Assembly (NCBI GenBank): GCA_005882295.1
Contig: VBAI01000011.1
Location: 1,592-65,591 of the forward strand
Origin: Candidatus Segetimicrobium genomatis
GTDB lineage: Bacteria > Sysuimicrobiota > Sysuimicrobiia > Sysuimicrobiales > Kaftiobacteriaceae
Direction: 5' to 3'
Length of the DNA: 64,000 nt
Part shown: in pieces, positions 1-29,612 of the stretch
How the letters are laid out: each line of letters starts with the position of its first letter
How positions within the stretch are numbered: position 1 is the stretch's first letter
Made by a program: the position numbers and the translations under genes
Notes under the pieces: model-generated
Databases searched by the model: none
The model's input: the letters and a program-made list of their open reading frames with translations, nothing else
Told to the model about the DNA's origin: nothing

Positions 1-772
1 TCTCGCCTGGCGAGGTGAGCACATCGAGCGGGAGGTTCACGCGCAGGGCACGGCCTGGGATCAGGTGACGCGTGATGCCGGCGGGCAGCTTGACCGGCGC
101 GCGGGAGATCTCAAGGATGTCGCGCTTGGTGAAGGCGGGAAACACGACCACGGCCGCGACGGACCCGTACTCTTCCCTCAGCGCCTCCAGATCCGCGCTC
201 ATCACCCGGTAGATCCGGTTCGTGGTTTTGTATGCGTCCACCACGGCCGCCAGGGTCTCGGCCAGGGAATGGCGGGCAGACGCGGACACCTCGACGGCTC
301 CGCCTGATGTGATCACATAGCAGCCGCTGGACCGCTCGGGTGGGCGGCGCGAGGCCTCGGCCGGGCTGATGTCCCGGATGGAAAGCCCCCTGGCGCGCAA
401 GAGCCCAGGCAGGTCGACCGGCTGCGCGAGGAGGTGACACCAGACGTCCAACCTGACGGCAGGATCTTCGTACTCGACCACCTGGAGGAGTACCGCGGGC
501 GCTTCGAGGGCCAGCAGCGCGGTGGTGCGGTTGGCGCCGTCGAGGATCACAAAGCCGCCGTCGGAGCGCGGCGCCGCGATGGGCGGATTCCGCAAGACTC
601 CCTCGGTGCGCAGGCGCGTGACGAGCCGCTGCACCCGCGCAGGATCGGTGTCCTCGTGCAGGTGCACCTCGGCCCGGGGAACAATACGCAGATCGGGAAG
701 CGATCGTCCCTCCGGCAAACGCAGGGCCGCCCCGACTTTCGCCTTGTCGTCAGTCATTGTCTCAGCCAGTCT
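1..772 (-). CDS. ParB/sulfiredoxin-like domain protein, partial (C-terminus runs off the window start)
   Basis: Start codon is the reverse complement of 770-772. Translation MTDDKAKVGAALRLPEGRS...GFVILDGANRTTALLAL carries a ParB N-terminal-domain-like DG-x-x-R motif. High GC at third positions. Not in the ORF track because it has no stop inside the window. Confidence 0.45.
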
Positions 773-886
773 TCACAGTCTCCCCAGTCCTCCCAGTCTA
801 CCCAGTCTGTGTGCTCCTCCGGAAGGGCTTGGAGACTGGGAAGACCGTGGAGACCGGGAAGACTGGGTAGACTCGGCAGTTAGCGT
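766..886. repeat. Hairpin element family C (tandem CAGTCTNCC / GTCTACCCAGTCTTCCCAGTC units followed by inverted GGGAAGACTGGGTAGAC units)
   Basis: Direct reading: cagtcttcacagtctccccagtcctcccagtctacccagtc ... gactgggaagaccgtggagaccgggaagactgggtagac. Same family at 16686-16792 and 18607-18684. Confidence 0.8.
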
Positions 887-2628
887 CCCAGCTGTTTCGC
901 GAGATGGTCGATGACGTCAATCTTGGTGACAATTCCGGCAACCGCGCCATGATCCACGACGACGGCCGCGTTGCTGGACAGGAAGATGTCGGCCAGGACA
1001 TCGAGGGGGCTGTCGGGGTCGACGACCGGCGGAGCAGGATCGATGATGGGCTGGATCGGATCGGATGGCCGGTGCGATCCATCCAGCAGGTGCGTGAGCA
1101 GGTCCACTTCACTGATCATGCCCACCAGCCGGCCGTCCTCCAGCACGGGGAGTTGTGACACGTCATACTGCTTCATCTTGGCGACGACCTCGTTGACGGC
1201 ATCCGTGCGGGTGGCCGTGACCAGCGGGATCGTTCGCGAGCGCACCAGGTCGCCCACGGTCCCCAGTTCCCGCTCCAGCATGCCGTGCTCGCGCATCCAG
1301 TCGTCGGAAAAGATCTTCGACAGGTAGCGGGAGCCGGAGTCCGGCAGGATCACCACCATCCGCAGCCCGGCGCCCATCTCGGGGAGTGTGCGCGCGTACT
1401 TCAGCGCGCCGGCGACGGCCGCACCGCCGCTGCCGCCGCAGAACAAACCTTCCTCACGCACCAGCCGGCGCGTTGTCAAGAAGGCGTCGCGGTCGCTGAC
1501 CTGCACGACGTCATCCAGCACCGAGAAATCCATCGTCTTGGGGAGAAAGTCTTCGCCGATGCCTTCGACCTTGTACGTGTGCGGCTCTGGCATGGTGCCG
1601 GTCTTGAAGTAGTCATAGAAGACGGACCCCACGGGGTCGACGCCAATCACCCGCAGTCCCGGATGACGCTCCTTCAAAAACTTTCCGGCGCCGGAGATCG
1701 TGCCGCCCGTGCCCATGCTGGCCACCACGACGTCGAGACGTCCGCCGGTCTGCCGCCAGATCTCCGGGCCAGTGCTGTCGTAGTGCGCGTGCGGGTTGGC
1801 CGGGTTGGCGTACTGGTTGGCGTAGAAGCTGTTGGGTGTTTCTTCGGCGATGCGGCGGCTGACGTTGTAGTAACTGCGCGGATCCTCGGGGGCCACCGCG
1901 GTGGGAGTGATGATCACGCGCGCGCCGAAGGCCCGCAGCAGGCGAATCTTCTCTTCGGACATCTTATCCGGCATGACGAAGATAGTGCGATATCCGCGCA
2001 CCGCCGCGGCAATGGCCACGCCGACGCCGGTATTCCCGGATGTCGCCTCTACAATCGTGCCCCCCGGCCGCAGCAAACCGCGGCGCTCGGCGTCTTCGAT
2101 CATCGCCGGGCCAATACGGTCTTTCACCGAGCCGCCGGGGTTCAGATACTCCAGCTTGGCGACCAGATCGGCGCGGATGCCCCGGGTGACTTTGTGGAGT
2201 CGAACCAGCGGCGTCCGGCCAATGACCTCCAGCACCGTATCGTAGACCTCCTCGGGCGTGGCGGGCATTCCCGCCCGGCTCAGCCGGGGTGCCGGCACAG
2301 CCCGCCGCACGCGCCGGGACGCTGGGGATTTCACTTTCCGCGCCACGCTCTTGCCCCGACCTCCTGCCATCGCGGGAATGATCGATACCTCGTCGCCATC
2401 CTGGACCGGCGTGGAGAGCCCTTCGAGCTGGCGGATCTCGGTCCCATTGACGAAAATGTTGATGAAGCTGCGCACCTCCCCCGTCTCGTCACACAGCTGC
2501 TGGCGGATCCCAGGATATGTGCGCTCCAAGGCATCCAGCAGGGCGCGCATGCTGCGGCCGGCGGCCTCCACCTTGCTCTGGCCGCCCGTTGTACGGCGTA
2601 ACGGAGTTGGTATGTACACTGTCGTCAT
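880..2628 (-). CDS. CysO(MoaD/ThiS)-like sulfur-carrier domain fused to a PLP-dependent cysteine synthase / cystathionine beta-synthase domain and a C-terminal CBS pair
   Basis: The N-terminal ~90 aa end in IIPAMAGG and resemble M. tuberculosis CysO (VYIPTPLRRTTGGQSKV...FINIFVNG...DGDEVSIIPAMAGG). A basic linker follows, then a PALP domain with the GGSVKDRIG lysine motif and a GNTG glycine loop. Two CBS motifs lie at the C-terminus. It is a single uninterrupted ORF. Confidence 0.85.
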   Translation of the reverse strand: MTTVYIPTPLRRTTGGQSKVEAAGRSMRALLDALERTYPGIRQQLCDETGEVRSFINIFVNGTEIRQLEGLSTPVQDGDEVSIIPAMAGGRGKSVARKVKSPASRRVRRAVPAPRLSRAGMPATPEEVYDTVLEVIGRTPLVRLHKVTRGIRADLVAKLEYLNPGGSVKDRIGPAMIEDAERRGLLRPGGTIVEATSGNTGVGVAIAAAVRGYRTIFVMPDKMSEEKIRLLRAFGARVIITPTAVAPEDPRSYYNVSRRIAEETPNSFYANQYANPANPHAHYDSTGPEIWRQTGGRLDVVVASMGTGGTISGAGKFLKERHPGLRVIGVDPVGSVFYDYFKTGTMPEPHTYKVEGIGEDFLPKTMDFSVLDDVVQVSDRDAFLTTRRLVREEGLFCGGSGGAAVAGALKYARTLPEMGAGLRMVVILPDSGSRYLSKIFSDDWMREHGMLERELGTVGDLVRSRTIPLVTATRTDAVNEVVAKMKQYDVSQLPVLEDGRLVGMISEVDLLTHLLDGSHRPSDPIQPIIDPAPPVVDPDSPLDVLADIFLSSNAAVVVDHGAVAGIVTKIDVIDHLAKQLGR

Positions 2629-2649
2629 GGCCTTGCTACCCCGAACAGC

Positions 2650-2734
2650 GTCTACTTGGTCTACCTAGTCTTCTTAGTCTACAAGCATCTAAAGAGACCA
2701 AGGAGACCAAGAAGACTAAGCAGACCAAGTAGAC
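2650..2734. repeat. Hairpin element family D (GTCTACTTGGTCTACCTAGTCTTCTTAGTCTAC ... GAGACCAAGAAGACTAAGCAGACCAAGTAGAC)
   Basis: Tandem 8-9-mers with an inverted copy. Second copy at 29521-29612. Confidence 0.8.
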
Positions 2735-2735
2735 A

Positions 2736-3881
2736 TCATTTGGCTGTTTCAAGCGCTTGTTTCAAGTCGTCAATGAGGTCATCGACGTGCTCAATGCCAA
2801 CAGAGAGCCGGAGGAGACCTTCGTCGACCTGGAGTGGGGAACCGGCCAGCGAGGCGTGCGTCATGCTGGCCGGGTGGTCGAGGAGCGACTCCACCCCGCC
2901 CAGGCTTTCCGCCAGCGTGAACACCCGCGTCGCCGACGCCACGGCGCGGGCAGCCCGCCCGCCGCCCTTGAGCACCACCGAGACCATCCCACCAAACCCT
3001 TTCATCTGACGGGCGGCCAGTTGATACCCGGGATGATCCGGCAGACCCGGGTACAGCACACGCGCCACGGCGGGATGCCCACGGAGGAACTGTGCCACCT
3101 GCGACGCGTTGGCGGCGTGACGTTCCATCCGCACAGCCAGTGTCTTGATTCCCCGCAAGACCAGCCAGCAGTCAAACGGACCGGGCACCGCGCCCGCCGC
3201 GTTCTGGTGAAACTTCAGGGTCTCATGGATCTCCTTGCTGTTGGTCATCGCGCCGCCACCCACCACGTCGCTATGACCGCCTAGATATTTGGTGGTGGAA
3301 TGCACGGCGAGATCCGCCCCCAGCGTGAGCGGCTGCTGAAGGTACGGGGACGCAAAGGTGTTGTCAACGACAACGAGCGCATCATGCGCATGCGCAAGTT
3401 CCGCGATCCGGGCGATGTCGAGAATCTTCAAATAGGGGTTGGTGGGAGTCTCGATCACCACCATCCGCGGCCGGTCGGCCAGCGCCGCCTCGACACGGGT
3501 GAGGTCGGTCATATCGACGAACGCGGGCCGGATCCCATACCGCTGCAGCACCCGCACGAGCAGCCGGTACGTGCCTCCATAGATGTCGTCGGGGCCGAGG
3601 ACGCGATCGCCGGGGTTGAGAAGGTAGGCGATGGTCGTGATCGCCGCCATGCCCGACGCAAAGGCCAGGCCGTACGCGGCGTCCTCCAAAGACGCCAGGC
3701 AGGTCTCCAGCGCGGTTCGCGTCGGATTTGCGGTCCGGCTGTAGTCGTATCCCTTGTGCACTGCCGGTTCGGGCTGCGCGTACGTCGAGGTCTGATAGAT
3801 CGGGGTCATCACCGCGCCGGTCGCCGGATCCGGGTCCTGGCCATCATGAATCGCGCGGGTCTCGAACCGCCGGCGTGTCAT
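2736..3881 (-). CDS. Cystathionine gamma-lyase/gamma-synthase family PLP enzyme (Cys/Met metabolism)
   Basis: MTRRRFETRAIHDGQ...TPIYQTSTY N-terminus. PLP-lysine motif STTKYLGGHSDVVGG. Length 381 aa. Confidence 0.85.
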   Translation of the reverse strand: MTRRRFETRAIHDGQDPDPATGAVMTPIYQTSTYAQPEPAVHKGYDYSRTANPTRTALETCLASLEDAAYGLAFASGMAAITTIAYLLNPGDRVLGPDDIYGGTYRLLVRVLQRYGIRPAFVDMTDLTRVEAALADRPRMVVIETPTNPYLKILDIARIAELAHAHDALVVVDNTFASPYLQQPLTLGADLAVHSTTKYLGGHSDVVGGGAMTNSKEIHETLKFHQNAAGAVPGPFDCWLVLRGIKTLAVRMERHAANASQVAQFLRGHPAVARVLYPGLPDHPGYQLAARQMKGFGGMVSVVLKGGGRAARAVASATRVFTLAESLGGVESLLDHPASMTHASLAGSPLQVDEGLLRLSVGIEHVDDLIDDLKQALETAK

Positions 3882-3884
3882 CAG

Positions 3885-4601
3885 CTATGCTGAGGCGGCG
3901 GCATACCCGGATGCCGCGCGCAGGAGATCCTCGCGCGCGACAGCCCCCAGCGTCAGATCGAACACCTCGGCAAACCTGCGTGCATACGCCAGCCGGACCT
4001 CGTCGACAGGCAGGGGCCGTCCGAGCAGGCGGGCCATCGACGTGACGGGGCGTCCGATCCCGCAGGGATTGATGTAGTCGAAGGGCGCGAGATCAGGACC
4101 GACATTGAGGGCGAACCCGTGCATGGTCACCTTGCGTTTGACGGCGACCCCGACCGCTGCGATCTTCTCATGGCCGGCCCAGACGCCAGGAAAACCCCGC
4201 AGCCGCTGCGCGGCGAGGCCGAAATCCTGCAGCGTGCGGAGGATGGTCTCCTCCAGCGACCGCACGTACTTCACGACGTCCTCGTTGTAGGCGCGCAGGT
4301 CCAGGATGGGATAGCCCACCAGCTGGCCCGGCCCGTGGTAGGTCACACTGCCTCCGCGCTCAATGTCATAAACTTCGAACCCCTTGCCGGTAAGAAACTC
4401 GCGCGGGACCAGCAGATGGTCGGCCCGGGCGGAGCGGCCGATCGTGAATACCGGCTCGTGCTCCAGCAGGATGAGCCCGTCCGCCAGCTCTTCCCGTTGC
4501 CGCGCCCCGATCAGAGCCTTTTGCAGCGCCCAGGCATCGGCATAGGGCGTAGGACCCTCGCGGAGATTGAGGAGCCAACCCTTTCGAGACATCACCGCCA
4601 T
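3885..4601 (-). CDS. lipB: Lipoyl(octanoyl) transferase
   Basis: Motifs LEHEPVFTIGR, HGFALNV, NPCGI. 238 aa. Confidence 0.85.
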   Translation of the reverse strand: MAVMSRKGWLLNLREGPTPYADAWALQKALIGARQREELADGLILLEHEPVFTIGRSARADHLLVPREFLTGKGFEVYDIERGGSVTYHGPGQLVGYPILDLRAYNEDVVKYVRSLEETILRTLQDFGLAAQRLRGFPGVWAGHEKIAAVGVAVKRKVTMHGFALNVGPDLAPFDYINPCGIGRPVTSMARLLGRPLPVDEVRLAYARRFAEVFDLTLGAVAREDLLRAASGYAAASA

Positions 4602-4605
4602 TGTA

Positions 4606-4732
4606 ACAGTGAATCATGAATCATGTGTAGTGATTAGTGAATCGTGATTAGTGATTCGCCACACTACTCACATTGTGGTACATCGCCTCACCAGACTGGT
4701 TGCGAATCACTAATCACAAATCACCAATCACG
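4606..4732. repeat. Hairpin element family E (GTGATTAGTGAATCGTGATTAGTGATTCG ... CGAATCACTAATCACAAATCACCAATCAC)
   Basis: Tandem GTGATTA/GTGATTCG units with an inverted copy. Second copy at 39055-39162. Confidence 0.8.
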
Positions 4733-5621
4733 CAGTCGGTTCAATCACTCCGCTGAAGGTGGTCACCTCCAGCCCCCTCCCTCGGAGTTCGCGGAGAAAG
4801 GGTGTGAAGCCGAGGGAGTCACCGGCCAGGTGACCTGTGACGATCAGGTTGCCGCGGCCTTCGGCGCGCAGGCGCTGCAATTCTCCAAAGTCGATGTGGA
4901 TGTAGACGACCAGATCCACGCCGTGCGTAAAACAGGTGTGGGCAACGGGATAACCGCCATTTGTGTAGGCGCCGTGGGCGACGACGACCTTGCGCACCGG
5001 GTCTCTGGCATTGCCCATGGCCAGCTGCACTGTGGTCGGGGCGGCGCGCATTTCCGGGAGCGCCAGCAGCGCCTCAACGACATCACCGGCCGTGGCGTGC
5101 CCGGCAGCCAGCCCCGTACCAACCGGCGCGGAGCCTTTCTGCGTTGCGCCAGTCGATCTCGCCGGTTGGTACGGGGCCAGGGCAGTGTCGACCTGCTCAC
5201 GCATCCGCCGGCGGCCCAGCTCGTCCAGCGGAGCGTGGATGTTCATAAAGGGCATACCCAGCAGTCGTGCGGCCGAGGGAACGTGGTCATAGTTGGCCGC
5301 CTGACCACGCAGCTTCAGCCCCTCGACCTTCTCTGCCACCGCGGCCAGCGCCGCATCCTCCGGCACGCCGGCTGCAGTCATAAACTCCACATGCCTGAGG
5401 AAGATCTTCCAGACCTCGACCGCGGTGGCGGGAGGGTGGTGGGCGATGACGAGATCGGCGCCCATCGTCTTCGCCAGTTGCAACTCAGCCGTGCCGACAT
5501 CCAGTCCGAAGAGCACTTTCCTGATGCCCTTGCCGGGGACGAAAATACTCGAGTCCTCCGGAATGCGGAGATAGCCGGACATCCCCAGCGCCAGCGACAT
5601 GATCTCTTCCGTAGTCATCAA
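4728..5621 (-). CDS. Nif3-like dinuclear metal centre protein (GTP cyclohydrolase 1 type 2 homolog family)
   Basis: DLVIAHHPP hallmark and a C-terminal GHLAGDSLGF region. 297 aa. Confidence 0.55.
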   Translation of the reverse strand: MMTTEEIMSLALGMSGYLRIPEDSSIFVPGKGIRKVLFGLDVGTAELQLAKTMGADLVIAHHPPATAVEVWKIFLRHVEFMTAAGVPEDAALAAVAEKVEGLKLRGQAANYDHVPSAARLLGMPFMNIHAPLDELGRRRMREQVDTALAPYQPARSTGATQKGSAPVGTGLAAGHATAGDVVEALLALPEMRAAPTTVQLAMGNARDPVRKVVVAHGAYTNGGYPVAHTCFTHGVDLVVYIHIDFGELQRLRAEGRGNLIVTGHLAGDSLGFTPFLRELRGRGLEVTTFSGVIEPTA

Positions 5622-5634
5622 AAAAGTCTGGGTT

Positions 5635-5847
5635 CTAGTCTCGGAACAGTGGAACGAGCGTGAGAATCACAGCGATGGCAGCAGTGATCCACAGGCGGAC
5701 GATTGTCGGCCGGGACCGGAAGCGGCGGCGGTACACGGCATAGAATGAGTAACCCAGTGAGAGGACTGTGAACGCCAGCAGATACGGCCTCGCCGACTCA
5801 AAGAAGACCTGCAGTGCAGCGCCTCCTAACCCGAGGAGGCTCGCCAC
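5635..5847 (-). CDS. Small hypothetical membrane protein (70 aa, two predicted TM helices)
   Basis: Hydrophobic ORF between the Nif3-like gene and the FTR1 permease gene. No recognisable family. Confidence 0.3.
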   Translation of the reverse strand: MASLLGLGGAALQVFFESARPYLLAFTVLSLGYSFYAVYRRRFRSRPTIVRLWITAAIAVILTLVPLFRD

Positions 5848-5924
5848 CGGCGCGATCAGTCATCACCCGGACGCCAGCAGACTGAGGGCCAGCGATCTCA
5901 AGTCCAGTCCGTGAGCGGTACGCA

Positions 5925-6040
5925 TCCTACCTACACAAACTACACGATCTACACAACCTACACAATCACCTGCAGAACCATCTGTTTGCGCTTTTGATTG
6001 TGTGGGTTGTGGAGTTTGTGTAGGTCGCGTAGGTTAGGTC
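5925..6040. repeat. Hairpin element family B (CTACACAAACTACACGATCTACACAACCTACACAATCACCTGCAGA ... TTGTGTGGGTTGTGGAGTTTGTGTAGGTCGCGTAGG)
   Basis: Tandem CTACACAA units with an inverted TTGTGTAG arm. Copies at 17605-17716 and 44995-45133 share the spacer motif CAAT(C/T)ACCT(G/A)C. Confidence 0.8.
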
Positions 6041-6869
6041 AGGCTTTCGCACGTTGGGGGGCCAGCTCCTTTGCGGTCGGTGGCCGGAAGTAGGCCCACC
6101 CCACCACGAACAGGTAGACAGCGTAGGCGAGGACCTCGACTAGCGAGGGGTTGCCGTTGTACCCAAAGACAGCGTTGAGCACGCTGCCCACCGATGATGT
6201 ATCAGGAATGATGGCGTTGGTGTCCCAGACGTGCTCGATCACGGGCGGGATGAGCCCGGCCTCGTGGAATTCGTGGGTGCCGTGCGCCAGCAGGCCAGAG
6301 GCGAACAGCAGCAGCAAGATGCTCGTGACGTTGAAAAACGTGCGCAGGTTCAACCGGTAGGTGCCGCGGTAGAGCAGGTAGCCCAGCACAACCGCGGCGA
6401 GCACTCCCAGCAGCCCGCCCGCTGTCACGATCAGCATCGTCGCAGACCTGACGGCGGCGAACAGGAAGAGCGCGGTCTCCACGCCTTCCCGCCCCACCGC
6501 CACGAACGCCAGGAACGCCAGCGCTCCCAGCGACCCGGCCTGCAGGGCGGTGTTTACCCTGGCGTGGAGGTGTGCGCGGATGTTGATGGACTGCCTGCGC
6601 ATCCAGAAGATCATGTAGGTGAGAACCCCGGCCGCAGTGAACATGGCGGTGCCTTCAAACAGCTGCTCGCCTCGCCCCGTGAACTCGCCCGCAGTCACAA
6701 AGATGCCGGCGCCGACGATCGCGCTCATCAGGATCGCCAGCCCGGTACCCAGCCACGCGACGGCGAATTTTTCGCGATGTCCGGTCCTGGCCAGATAGGC
6801 CAGGATGATGCCGACGATAAGGGCTGCCTCCAGACCCTCCCGTAACGTGATCAGGGCTGATGCCGCCAT
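6039..6869 (-). CDS. FTR1/EfeU-family high-affinity iron permease
   Basis: Two REXXE motifs (REGLEAAL and REGVETAL) within 7 TM segments. 276 aa. Confidence 0.8.
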   Translation of the reverse strand: MAASALITLREGLEAALIVGIILAYLARTGHREKFAVAWLGTGLAILMSAIVGAGIFVTAGEFTGRGEQLFEGTAMFTAAGVLTYMIFWMRRQSINIRAHLHARVNTALQAGSLGALAFLAFVAVGREGVETALFLFAAVRSATMLIVTAGGLLGVLAAVVLGYLLYRGTYRLNLRTFFNVTSILLLLFASGLLAHGTHEFHEAGLIPPVIEHVWDTNAIIPDTSSVGSVLNAVFGYNGNPSLVEVLAYAVYLFVVGWAYFRPPTAKELAPQRAKA

Positions 6870-6960
6870 GCATCCTCCAAAGCGCAGTGAGTGGGAAACT
6901 TCGCTCAGGCTACCCTACTTCCTGATTGTCGTCAATCTGGCGGAGAACTGCAACCCGGGA

Positions 6961-8319
6961 CTAGGGTTGTATGCCCGTGAGCTCGCGGACAGCCTGCTCC
7001 ACCTGTTGCCGTGGATACGCGAAGTCTTCCAGCCGGCCGGCCAGGAAGTCTTCGTAGGCCTTCAAGTCGAAGTGCCCATGGCCGCTCAAGTTAAAGAGGA
7101 TCACCCGTGGACTGCCGTCGCGCTTGGCCTGAAGCGCTTCGTCGGTGGCTTTGCGGATCGCATGCGCCGACTCCGGCGCCGGGATAATCCCCTCTGCCCG
7201 TGCAAACTGCAGGGCGGCTTCAAACACCGCCCGTTGCTGATACGCTACGGCCTCGATGTACTTGTGGTGATAGAGCAGACACACCAGGGGCGCGTCCCCG
7301 TGGTAGCGCAGCCCTCCGGCGTGAATGGCCGGCGGGACAAAACTGTGCCCCAGCGTGTACATTTTCAGCAGCGGCGTGGTGGCCGCCGTGTCGCCGAAGT
7401 CATACAGATACATGCCGCGGGTCAGCGAAGGGCATGCTTCGGGCTCGACGGCGACGATGCGAACCTTCTTGCCCTTGAACTTGTCCGCCAGGAAGGGGAA
7501 CGCCAGCCCGGACATGTTGCTCCCCCCGCCGATGCACCCGATCACCACGTCCGGATACTCACCGGCCAGCTCCATCTGCCGGCGGGCCTCCAGGCCGATG
7601 ACGGTCTGATGCAGGAGGACGTGATTCAGCACGCTGCCCAGCGAGTACTTCGTATCGTCGTGCGTGGCGGCATCTTCCACCGCCTCGCTGATCGCGATGC
7701 CCAGGCTCCCCGGGGAGTTCGGATCCTTGGCCAGGATCGCGCGGCCGGCGTTGGTCCGCGAGCTGGGGCTGGGAATGACCTCGGCGCCCCAGGTCTGCAT
7801 CATGATCTTGCGGTAAGGCTTCTGGTCATGGCTGACCTTGACCATGTACACGGTGCATTGCAGATCGAACAAGCGGCAGGCCAGGGCCAGGGCGCTTCCC
7901 CATTGCCCGGCGCCTGTCTCGGTCGCCAGCCGGCGCACGCCGGCCTGCTTGTTGTAGAAGGCCTGCGCCACAGCGGTATTCGGCTTGTGGCTTCCGGCGG
8001 GACTCGTACCTTCATATTTGTAGTAGATGTGCGCGGGCGTATCCAGCACCCGTTCCAGCCGCCGGGCCCGGTGCAGCGGCGTCGGCCGCCACAGCCGGTA
8101 GATGTCTCGCACCGGCTCCGGAATCGGGATCTCGCGCTCGGTGCTGACTTCCTGCAGGATGAGGTCCATCGGAAATAGCGGCGCGAGATCATTTGGCCCG
8201 ATCGGCTGTTTCGTGCCGGGGTGGATGACCGGCGGCAGGGGCACGGGCAAATCTGCCAGGATGTTGTACCAGGATTTCGGGATCTGATTCTCGTCGAGCA
8301 GATACTTCACGCTTTCCAT
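6961..8319 (-). CDS. trpB2: Tryptophan synthase beta-like protein, long TrpB2 type
   Basis: 452 aa with [21 protein letters not shown]-lysine region and the TrpB2-type N-terminal extension. Confidence 0.85.
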
Positions 8320-8395
8320 CGACAGTCCCCCTCCGCCTCGCTGGAATCGTGATTCCGCGCGATTCGCGCCCCTGAGGAGAAATCCTTCCCGTTAT

Positions 8396-10114
8396 TCAGC
8401 TTTTGACGCGCAGCGTCCGCAGCCGATTGATCGCGGCGGCGATTTCCTGGCGTCGAGGGAAGGCCAGGTCGCCGGGCGCGCCGTCGGGGGCCAGGCCTTC
8501 AAGCCCGCGCTGGGCGATCTCCAGCTCGATCAATCCAAGCAGCTCGCGCATCGTGCGCATACCATCCACCAGCCCGTGGTCGGCGACCCAGATCAATGCG
8601 GCGGCGATTGCCCGCGCCTGCCCCGGATCGACCAGTTGCTCCAACGCGGCCAGATCCAGCGTGTCCCGACCCAAGAACACCGTGCGGATCTCGTGCGTTC
8701 CGGGGTGTGGATCGCTTCGCAGTCTCCGGCCGCGGAGAAATGCAAAGCCGTCGGGGAGCGGCACGCGGTGGTGGACGCCCCCGAATGACCCCTTCGGCCC
8801 GGCTCCGGGACTCGTCACATGTGCGGCCTGTCTGATCGCGGCGGTCACCGTCCGCAAATGGAAACCATCCATCGCGATGATGGTATCAGCGCAGGCAGCA
8901 TACTCGCTGCTGTGGCTGGTGACGACAATCGTCGACACACCGTGCTCTTCATACAAGGGCCGCACGATCTCGGCCAGGGGGATGACCGTCTGCCTGGCCT
9001 CCGGCGCCAGCTGACGCCAGAGCGGGTCGCGAGCCAGCAGGCCCGGCGCCGACGTATCCTCATCGATCAGCAGCACCGAGCAGCCGGCTTCCAGCGCCTC
9101 CCCGATCCCGGCGGCCTGCGACACGATGTCCCCGGCATGCTCCGCGCGGTATCGCGCTGGATCTTCTCCGCCCGGCAGGGAACTCAGGAATGCGGAGACG
9201 TTGACGCCCTCAATGCGGCGGCCTTCCTCCGCCCGCACCAGCGCCGCGTCGGCGACTGTCGTGCAGTGCTCACGCCCATCGCCTGGAAGATGTGGATACA
9301 CGCCGGTGGCAATGGCCCGCAACAGCGTGCTGCGGCCGGAAAATGGATTCCCCATAATCACGGTCACACCGCGTGGGATACCAACCCCGCTCACCACCCC
9401 CCGGTGCGGCAGATCGAGGGTGACTTTCAACTCCGGCGGCGCCGACAGGGGCACGAGGCGCGAGAGGATCGGGCGATCGGATCCGCTCTCGCGGGGGAGC
9501 ACCGCCCCCTCGGCCAGAAAGGCCACCAGGCCCCGTGCGGACAGCTGCAGGCGTAAGGCCTCGGCGTCCTCGGCCACCTCGACGTGACGCTGCGCCGCGT
9601 TGGGATTCAGGTTGGGGTAGATCAGCGCGCTGTCGACGAGCTGCGGAAGATCCTCGAAGAGCACGGTCTGGGCCGCCTTGGACACAATCTTTCGGCCCTC
9701 TGCCGGCAGGAAGATGGTGCAGCGAATCTCAACGTAATTTTCCGCCATCCGGCAGGCGGTGCGTTCGAGGATCTGTTGACCGCCGACATCGACAGCAAAC
9801 TGGGGCCGCCCGCCCCGAGAGCGGGCCACCTTCCGGATGGCCTCCAGCCAGCGCCGGGCGATGAAATCTTCCAGGGCGATCTTGCCGGGGCGGGACGCCC
9901 ACAACGACGCCGGAAATCTGGCCTCCGCCTGGTCGAGCCGGACCCGCAACGGCGATGGTGCCCCCGGCGGCTCCACGACCACATGGTCCACATGCAACGT
10001 GAAGCGCTCGAACCGGTACTCGCCGTCCAGCGCCTGGTATGCCTGGAAGGGCTTGCCCTCAAGGGTCAGGATCTTGTCGCGGAGGCGCTCCCACGGCAGC
10101 ATGGCAGATACCAA
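8396..10114 (-). CDS. ABC-class ATPase-like protein (resembles the 'predicted ATPase of the ABC class' family)
   Basis: 572 aa. Degenerate Walker A GNPFSGRSTLL, Walker B VLLIDEDTS, and an H-loop-like VVTSHSS. The 8-nt gap to the upstream CYTH-DNPH1 gene suggests an operon. Confidence 0.55.
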   Translation of the reverse strand: MVSAMLPWERLRDKILTLEGKPFQAYQALDGEYRFERFTLHVDHVVVEPPGAPSPLRVRLDQAEARFPASLWASRPGKIALEDFIARRWLEAIRKVARSRGGRPQFAVDVGGQQILERTACRMAENYVEIRCTIFLPAEGRKIVSKAAQTVLFEDLPQLVDSALIYPNLNPNAAQRHVEVAEDAEALRLQLSARGLVAFLAEGAVLPRESGSDRPILSRLVPLSAPPELKVTLDLPHRGVVSGVGIPRGVTVIMGNPFSGRSTLLRAIATGVYPHLPGDGREHCTTVADAALVRAEEGRRIEGVNVSAFLSSLPGGEDPARYRAEHAGDIVSQAAGIGEALEAGCSVLLIDEDTSAPGLLARDPLWRQLAPEARQTVIPLAEIVRPLYEEHGVSTIVVTSHSSEYAACADTIIAMDGFHLRTVTAAIRQAAHVTSPGAGPKGSFGGVHHRVPLPDGFAFLRGRRLRSDPHPGTHEIRTVFLGRDTLDLAALEQLVDPGQARAIAAALIWVADHGLVDGMRTMRELLGLIELEIAQRGLEGLAPDGAPGDLAFPRRQEIAAAINRLRTLRVKS

Positions 10115-16685: not shown

Positions 16686-16792
16686 TAGTCTACCCAGTCT
16701 TCCCTGTCTTCCCAGTCTACCCGGTCTCAGTGCGTTTCGTCTGTGCAGTTGACTGGGAAGACTGTGTAGACCGGGTAGACCGGGTAGACCGT
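16686..16792. repeat. Hairpin element family C
   Basis: gtctacccagtcttccctgtcttcccagtctacccggtc ... gactgggaagactgtgtagaccgggtagaccgggtagacc. Confidence 0.8.
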
Positions 16793-18606: not shown

Positions 18607-18684
18607 AAGTCTACACAGTCTTCCCAGTCCCCCCAGTCTTCCCAGTCTACTTCGCGGACGAAACGTACTGAGACTGGGTAGACT
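18607..18684. repeat. Hairpin element family C
   Basis: gtctacacagtcttcccagtccccccagtcttcccagtctac ... gagactgggtagac. Confidence 0.8.
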
Positions 18685-29520: not shown

Positions 29521-29612
29521 CGTCTACTTGGTCTACTTAGTCTTCTTAGTCTACTTGGTCTAAGAGATCTACAGAATCAACGCTCTCTGGAGCAGGTAGA
29601 CCAAGTAGACGC
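29521..29612. repeat. Hairpin element family D (inside the nuo operon, between nuoI and nuoH)
   Basis: cgtctacttggtctacttagtcttcttagtctacttggtc ... ggtagaccaagtagacg. Confidence 0.8.

Follow-up and report, generated by a model that had tools for sequence, protein, structure and literature searches.

A CysO-type sulfur carrier encoded in one reading frame with cystathionine beta-synthase in the candidate phylum Sysuimicrobiota, a predicted substrate of an operon-encoded JAMM protease

We analysed a 64,000-nucleotide stretch of contig VBAI01000011.1 of Candidatus Segetimicrobium genomatis (referred to below as the window), in which a CysO-type sulfur-carrier protein is joined in a single open reading frame (ORF) to a cystathionine beta-synthase (CBS). 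The ORF is uninterrupted over 582 codons and continues past the diglycine of the carrier into the enzyme. The fusion is conserved, it recurs within one candidate phylum, and the genes around it include a JAMM protease and an E1 enzyme of the kind that serves such carriers. We favour the reading, at a probability of roughly 70%, that the product is a pro-protein. In this reading the operon-encoded JAMM protease would trim CysO after Gly90, the fusion would represent the tolerated loss of a stop codon, and CBS would be a neighbour that belongs to a parallel route.

The fusion gene and its domains

The exact 582-residue protein is indexed in 89 blocks of an assembly collection; it, or a one-residue variant of it, is present on four contigs, each from a different sample. 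The same ThiS, PALP and CBS architecture was found in ∼40 protein clusters of 65-81% identity, all from the candidate phylum CSP1-3/Sysuimicrobiota. The named clusters among these are 'Armatimonadota' metagenome-assembled genomes, their database label is only 'cystathionine beta-synthase', and one related genome is that of Candidatus Thermofontivivens primus (phylum Sysuimicrobiota, CSP1-3). An earlier note, made from the sequence alone, had described a CysO joined in frame to a CBS-type enzyme dependent on pyridoxal phosphate (PLP) and had asked for the frame to be verified; the independent assemblies and the ∼40 clusters confirm both. A sequencing or assembly artefact that erased a stop codon after the diglycine was considered and rejected as next to impossible, since the identical ORF occurs in independent assemblies and the architecture in ∼40 diverged clusters.

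The domain boundaries are listed in Table 1. The first 90 residues, ending in IIPAMAGG, match the Pfam model ThiS (residues 4-90, 56.1 bits, cutoff 22.5) and the SAMP1 profile NF041918 (65.4 bits, cutoff 60), and MoaD-type models match there too. In the PDB this domain found Mycobacterium tuberculosis CysO (3dwg_C, E=6.5e-20, 47% identity), followed by 4n6e_B (2.8e-17). The M. tuberculosis protein ends in ILPAVAGG. Gly89 and Gly90 are encoded by GGA GGT at positions 2359-2364, and the non-tryptic peptide ending at this diglycine reads ...DEVSIIPAMAGG. With the diglycine at residues 89-90 of 582, the translated product lacks a C-terminal Gly-Gly, and the terminal diglycine that characterizes the carrier family would therefore be attained only after proteolysis.

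An AlphaFold2 model was built with 39 fused homologues (predicted template-modelling score 0.59). The carrier domain is modelled as a beta-grasp fold (strands at residues 2-5, 19-22, 56-60 and 80-85, and a helix at 27-37) with a block-mean predicted local distance difference test (pLDDT) score of 76-94 over residues 1-80, and the CBS body is also well modelled. Between these two parts, residues 86-124 have a pLDDT below 50, which suggests that the diglycine tail and the linker are exposed and that the linker is disordered. The linker holds 11 Arg or Lys residues in 37.

The remainder of the protein resembles a complete CBS. It passes the NCBIfam model TIGR01137 for cystathionine beta-synthase (residues 130-577, 514.3 against a trusted cutoff of 510.25), contains the PLP-lysine motif SVKDR, and has the M. 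tuberculosis CBS Rv1077 as its best PDB match (2.4e-109), with human CBS second. The C-terminal 455 residues align end to end with Rv1077, including the Bateman module. These matches identify the PLP enzyme of the fusion as orthologous to true CBS over its full length, and its predicted reaction is the condensation of serine and homocysteine to cystathionine. Unlike the Bateman-bearing CBS enzymes Rv1077 and human CBS, the protein carries an N-terminal CysO and a basic linker, and it has no haem domain. The N-terminal resemblance to CysO with its AMAGG end, the Arg/Lys-rich linker of ∼35 residues, and the PLP domain followed by a Bateman pair had all been put forward in the earlier note and are borne out, as is the beta-grasp fold on which the note had made its reading depend.

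CysO ends and the recurrence of the fusion

Studying the related loci (numbered L001 onwards) can give clues to how the fusion arose. The gene order lipB - gamma-lyase - cysO - cbs - serK-like - cysM - JAB - rrf2 is kept in these loci as far as the contigs reach, and in the unfused relatives cysO is a gene of its own directly upstream of cbs. Of the 118 nearest CysO homologues that stand alone and contain the motif, just 2 terminate at the diglycine; in the remaining 116 the invariant IIPAMAGG is followed by an unconserved tail of 1-57 residues. In L001 the protein ends in AMAGG-GRVVDRCG. A scan of species-representative genomes gave the same picture, since all 11 close loci had either a tail (1-25 residues) or a CBS fusion (5 loci). 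More distant CysO genes in which the motif was found (51-60% identical, from cyanobacteria and others) stop exactly at the diglycine, with three exceptions, and thereby serve as an internal control for the method by which the tails were found.

The DNA at the junctions is informative as well. The cbs GTG overlaps the cysO TGA in L009, the CysO tail of L012 is the start of cbs read out of frame, and in L008 and L013 the CysO ORF runs into an intergenic hairpin of the GGGATCC/CCCTGAT type between cysO and cbs. Together, the drifting tails and the junction DNA indicate that no selection holds the cysO stop codon in place in this phylum, with the CBS fusion as the extreme of a continuum of tails.

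Fused and unfused forms are interspersed in a neighbour-joining tree of the CBS core, which requires 12 parsimony changes, and L008, the nearest species-level relative (92% CBS identity), is unfused. Across the 39 fused sequences Ala88 and Gly89 are invariant and Gly90 is at least 90% conserved, while the residue that follows varies (R, A, V, M, T, S, G, E or H). Measured against the query, CysO identity divided by CBS identity came to 0.83 for fused and 0.87 for unfused homologues. The conserved motif and the near-equal ratios indicate that selection continues to act on the CysO domain after fusion. Linker length ranges from 0 to ∼35 residues in the fused homologues, and the zero-linker proteins of 548 residues form a large clade without a basic extension or an internal start. 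The fused loci that reach far enough downstream (L002, L005, L014, L017 and L018) keep CysM and JAB and contain no separate cysO.

Further observations were made on the same set of loci. CBS in this lineage often has an Arg/Lys-rich, probably disordered N-terminal extension of 10-50 residues (MARKVK...RRR), seen in the unfused relatives P0035, P0037, P0044-P0046 and others; unfused relatives start with MARKVK or MSRRVK. In many cyanobacterial loci (L040, L041, L056, L058, L060 and others) the CysO-like gene is preceded, at a distance of ∼2 kb, by a second, more divergent ThiS/MoaD-like ORF ending in ...LIPPVSGG; short tails after the diglycine also occur in some few of the second ORFs (from L030, L040 and L041). 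The window also holds a family of dispersed, intergenic hairpins of ∼100 nt built from inverted 9-nt units of the AGTCTNCCC and GTCTACTTG types, to which the hairpins of L008 and L013 are related. The 9-nt pattern gave 22 matches where 0.02 were expected by chance. No riboswitch or known RNA was found near the operon with Rfam (E<=0.1, window positions 1-10000), which returned only sub-threshold 'miRNA precursor' matches that reflect the long hairpins.

The operon and a predicted maturation route

Three contigs, L005-L007, are 99.9% identical to window positions 1..10101 and run 9.1 kb past window position 1. On these contigs the fusion gene is followed on the same strand by genes for a SerK-like protein, a CysM-like enzyme, a Prok-JAB (JAMM) protein and an Rrf2/CymR-like regulator, and further on by a ThiF+rhodanese gene. 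Measured from window position 1, the start of the JAMM gene lies ∼1.2 kb and that of the MoeZ gene ∼5.8 kb outside the window. Within the 64-kb window a lineage-specific CysO hidden Markov model and phmmer detected no other CysO-like, JAB or ThiF ORF, although distant ThiS/MoaD paralogues could escape these searches. The absence of a JAMM protease and an E1 from the window is thus an edge effect, as both lie just past its left end on L005-L007. This fits the earlier note, which had predicted a JAMM/Mec+-type protease encoded outside the window and had suggested a search of the genome for it and for a MoeZ/MoeB-like E1: the genome has both, and the protease gene belongs to the operon itself. 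In the Prok-JAB protein the JAMM motif E..HxHx7Sx2D is intact, comprising HSHTHTAAYPSRTD and an upstream Glu.

Table 1. Positions of the features discussed (window coordinates, or coordinates on the related locus named)
Feature	Position	Strand	Remarks
Whole fusion ORF: CysO domain, linker, CBS catalytic core and Bateman pair	880..2628	minus	582 residues
CysO-type sulfur-carrier domain	2359..2628	minus	residues 1-90; ThiS, SAMP1 and PDB matches
Basic linker RGKSVARKVKSPASRRVRRAVPAPRLSRAGMPATPEE	2248..2358	minus	residues 91-127; corresponds to the N-terminal extension of unfused CBS relatives
Val95 GTG codon, in frame	2344..2346	minus	homologous to the start codon of unfused cbs (junction DNA comparison)
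PLP-dependent catalytic core of CBS	1339..2229	minus	residues 134-430; Pfam PALP 271 bits
Bateman module (two CBS motifs)	898..1239	minus	residues 464-577; Pfam CBS 64.9 bits, two stretches
Long hairpin of 9-nt periodic units	766..873		between fusion gene and serine-kinase-like gene
Similar 9-nt-periodic hairpin	2650..2734		between gamma-lyase gene and fusion gene
Further copies of the hairpin family	16687-16781; 18608-18648; 29521-29561		
Cystathionine gamma-lyase/synthase family gene	2736..3881	minus	Cys_Met_Meta_PP 487 bits; PRK07811 577.7 (cutoff 513)
lipB-like octanoyltransferase gene	3885..4601	minus	upstream operon neighbour, kept in relatives; Pfam LplA-B_cat 167 bits
SbnI/SerK-like gene, putative free serine kinase	1..757	minus	first ∼252 of 285 codons, runs off the left edge; full gene L005 11872-12729
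CysM-like PALP enzyme gene	L005 12726-13628	same as fusion	300 residues; two genes downstream, outside the window
Prok-JAB (JAMM) gene	L005 13823-14227, outside the window	same as fusion	134 residues; motif as in the text
MoeZ-type E1 gene (ThiF+rhodanese)	L005 18434-19624	same as fusion	396 residues; PRK07878 417 bits
CysM-JAB single ORFs	L012 9690-11213; L014 3342-4865; L017 9579-11030; L018 7467-8960		

The CysM-like enzyme scores 344 bits against TIGR01138, under the equivalog cutoff of 394, and no related locus that reaches that far downstream lacks its gene. Its presence bears on an analogy implied in the earlier note, namely that the fused PLP enzyme takes the place of CysM. This part of the note was not supported, as a separate CysM-like gene lies two genes downstream. 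Given this gene, and given that the fused enzyme resembles a true CBS, the carrier appears to be joined to a neighbour in the operon that serves a parallel pathway, and not to its catalytic partner. In L012, L014, L017 and L018 the CysM-like enzyme and the JAB protein form one ORF, with CysM N-terminal, a ∼40-residue linker and JAB C-terminal; in three of the four genomes (L014, L017 and L018) CysO and CBS are fused as well.

The serine-kinase-like gene lies between cbs and cysM wherever a related locus reaches that far. Its window portion (ORF 2..772) matches the L005 protein at 1.7e-162. The 285-residue protein has no Pfam match on record. It scores 60 bits against NCBIfam SbnI and 36.5 bits against SerK, both well under the cutoff, and matches SbnI (PDB 5uje, 1.3e-11) and a free serine kinase (5x0b, 0.003); its ParB/Srx-like motif reads DGANR, compared with DGVHR in SbnI. 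We regard it as a candidate dedicated supplier of O-phosphoserine for the CysM-type cysteine synthase.

On the upstream side, the gamma-lyase gene directly precedes cysO or the cysO-cbs fusion in 13 of the 13 related loci checked (L001, L002 and L008-L018). The family matches of this gene and of CBS are in agreement with the reverse-transsulfuration pair that had been proposed from the sequence. Further upstream, in the same gene cluster, a 452-residue PALP-family protein (6961-8319, minus strand) is probably TrpB2-like by sequence; its gene adjoins those for an FTR1 iron permease (6039-6869) and a NIF3-like protein (4728-5621), in an order kept in L001 and L004-L007.

From these genes the following route may be proposed. 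Translation would yield a CysO-linker-CBS pro-protein, which the JAMM protein (134 residues, a Mec+/desampylase-type Prok-JAB encoded after cysM in the operon) would cut after Gly90 to release CBS and a CysO of 90 residues whose Gly-Gly carboxylate is free. The MoeZ-type E1, encoded ∼6.7 kb downstream, would adenylate and then thiocarboxylate CysO. The CysM-like enzyme would use the CysO thiocarboxylate to form CysO-Cys, probably with O-phosphoserine from the adjacent SbnI/SerK-like kinase, and the same JAMM protease would hydrolyse CysO-Cys to free cysteine, as in the CysO/CysM/Mec+ system of M. tuberculosis. CBS and gamma-lyase would run reverse transsulfuration alongside, with all of these genes under the CymR-like regulator. 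As to its origin, a small indel would have brought cysO in frame with cbs and turned the old GTG start into Val95. The fusion would then need no special chemistry, as whatever follows the diglycine would be trimmed in this phylum. In the window's variant, free CBS may in addition come from an internal start at Val95, for which the diglycine codons (GGAGG, 13 nt upstream of the GTG) could act as a Shine-Dalgarno sequence; the zero-linker variants have no such start.

Precedents, competing readings and meaning

Several known systems make such a cleavage plausible. MoaX is active only once it has been cut after the diglycine (PMC4326299), active subunits result when HvJAMM1 cleaves SAMP1 fused linearly to MoaE (PMC4443979), a MoaD-MoaE fusion that occurs in nature is cut by DRJAMM (PMC8832034), and for QbsE and CxnE, which have extensions after the diglycine, removal by the JAMM protein of the cluster has been proposed (PMC5925218). 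Like MoaX, Deinococcus MoaD-MoaE and the engineered SAMP1-MoaE, the protein described here has an N-terminal beta-grasp carrier that would need release after its diglycine, and in two of those cases it is a JAMM protease that cuts. In the MoaD-MoaE type of fusion the carrier is joined to its own catalytic partner. Here the enzyme attached to it belongs to a parallel pathway, the operon itself contains the protease gene, and fusion recurs many times within one phylum. QbsE/QbsD and CxnE/CxnF share with our locus the residues past the diglycine and the JAMM gene in the cluster. HcyS/HcyD is likewise a precursor-type carrier with a cluster JAMM, proposed or shown to trim it. The tails of QbsE, CxnE and HcyS are fixed and 1-10 residues long, in contrast to the unconserved tails of 1-57 residues, or the whole 490-residue enzyme, found here.

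Two further comparisons are instructive. The M. tuberculosis CysO-CysM-Mec+ system (with MoeZ) has a homologous carrier, and the CysM-like, JAMM and ThiF-rhodanese E1 genes stand in the same neighbourhood in our genomes. The carrier here goes past its diglycine into CBS, unlike M. tuberculosis CysO; the operon also holds CBS, gamma-lyase and the SbnI/SerK-like putative serine kinase; and the CysM-like enzyme differs from M. tuberculosis CysM in having a Lys in place of Arg220 and in being fused to the protease in some relatives. Eukaryotic ubiquitin fusions (to ribosomal proteins, or as polyubiquitin) also have an N-terminal ubiquitin-like protein (Ubl) that is freed by a protease recognizing the Ubl and its diglycine regardless of what follows. 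Those fusions differ from ours, which is bacterial, would serve sulfur transfer and not tagging, and has a JAMM protease that would play an additional part in the catalytic cycle.

Of the two outcomes that the earlier note had left side by side, proteolytic maturation and a regulatory tether, the comparative data favour maturation, with tails and fusions found lineage-wide and the constraint on the fused carrier unrelaxed. A number of points weigh against the pro-protein reading. We infer the cleavage itself, as well as the thiocarboxylation and the substrate specificities. Mec+-type enzymes are known for taking off a single amino acid or a short tail, and here a C-terminal protein of ∼490 residues would have to be released. 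The JAMM protein reaches 101 against the NCBIfam desampylase cutoff of 130. The lack of a second CysO gene holds for the ∼73 kb around the locus. Use of O-phosphoserine is also in some doubt: Arg220 of M. tuberculosis CysM is the residue tied to O-phosphoserine recognition, and in an alignment with the M. tuberculosis sequence (identical to 3dwg_A) a conserved Lys (GLKHM) of the CysM-like enzyme takes its position. The best PDB matches of this enzyme are O-acetylserine sulfhydrylases, which makes its substrate uncertain.

It is conceivable, although we consider it unlikely, that maturation is a regulatory checkpoint and not housekeeping trimming. Tethered CysO, with its carboxylate blocked, and CBS, with its N-terminus capped by the Ubl, would then both be inactive, and a single cut would activate the two cysteine routes in a 1:1 ratio. 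The inactivity of tethered SAMP1-MoaE is the model for this idea. If true, it would provide a bacterial counterpart of the eukaryotic ubiquitin-fusion genes, evolved repeatedly in one uncultured phylum.

Rather improbable, too, is that the fusion stays uncleaved, with the tethered CysO regulating or scaffolding CBS (recruiting it to CysM or MoeZ, or modulating its activity) and CysM using free sulfide. Ubl-enzyme fusions with non-carrier roles are known, as are Ubl-ThiF fusions beside a separate ThiS (Iyer et al. 2006). The fusion persists across substantial divergence, and the large 548-residue clade, with essentially no linker between the diglycine and the CBS core, could reflect a fixed arrangement of domains. 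However, a tether accounts poorly for a diglycine and preceding motif that are essentially invariant next to a residue that is free to vary, or for a linker that is predicted to be disordered and is unconstrained in length. The random tails on stand-alone CysO proteins of the lineage make sense only if they are removed, and JAB and MoeZ are kept with no other carrier in sight at these loci.

A lower probability still is given to CBS itself accepting the CysO thiocarboxylate, in which case the fusion would join a carrier to its partner as in ThiS-ThiG or MoaD-MoaE. The sole basis for this is adjacency, as cysO always lies directly upstream of cbs in the phylum, sometimes with a GTGA stop/start overlap; it is established that CBS and CysM share a fold and that enzymes of the CBS family can take alternative nucleophiles. 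Against it stands the dedicated CysM-like enzyme in the operon, which is fused to JAMM in four relatives, and the Caldilineae, in which the orthologous carrier is found in a JAB-CysO-MoeZ-CysM cluster without CBS. The CBS part, moreover, passes TIGR01137, is nearest to true Bateman-bearing CBS enzymes, and lacks the CysM-type loop with a basic residue at the position of M. tuberculosis Arg220.

Very improbable, finally, is a neutral or slightly harmful accident, in which CBS is made mainly from an internal GTG start and the CysO moiety is dead. Val95 is the old cbs start codon, separated by 12 in-frame nucleotides from the diglycine codons and their GGAGG. The unfused state of the sister L008 indicates that the fusion in the window's lineage is recent. 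Yet the CysO domain is equally constrained in fused and unfused forms, the zero-linker fusions have no internal start and nevertheless form a large, old clade, and the exact protein of the window occurs in many samples.

No CysO/ThiS-CBS fusion was found reported in the full-text literature (subscription journals lie outside its coverage), in the catalogue of ThiS/MoaD fusions of Iyer et al. 2006, or in two CSP1-3 genomics papers. The principle of a JAMM-processed sulfur-carrier precursor is already known. New are the fusion partner from a different pathway, the lineage-wide loss of the stop at the diglycine, and the repeated fusion within one phylum. Since the annotation of the fused genes reads 'cystathionine beta-synthase' and nothing more, pathway reconstruction misses the one CysO carrier that these loci were found to contain. 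The gene content suggests a compact cysteine operon with a putative serine kinase, CysM, JAMM, CBS and gamma-lyase. If the pro-protein reading is true, a sulfur-carrier Ubl would routinely be made as a precursor across the widespread soil and subsurface phylum CSP1-3/Sysuimicrobiota, and JAMM trimming would be robust enough for the stop codon after the diglycine to drift and for the carrier to join the next gene repeatedly. This would extend the known cases, the short tails of QbsE and CxnE and the MoaD-MoaE fusions, to an enzyme that is not a partner of the carrier, and would place the ubiquitin-precursor processing logic of eukaryotes in a bacterial metabolic system.

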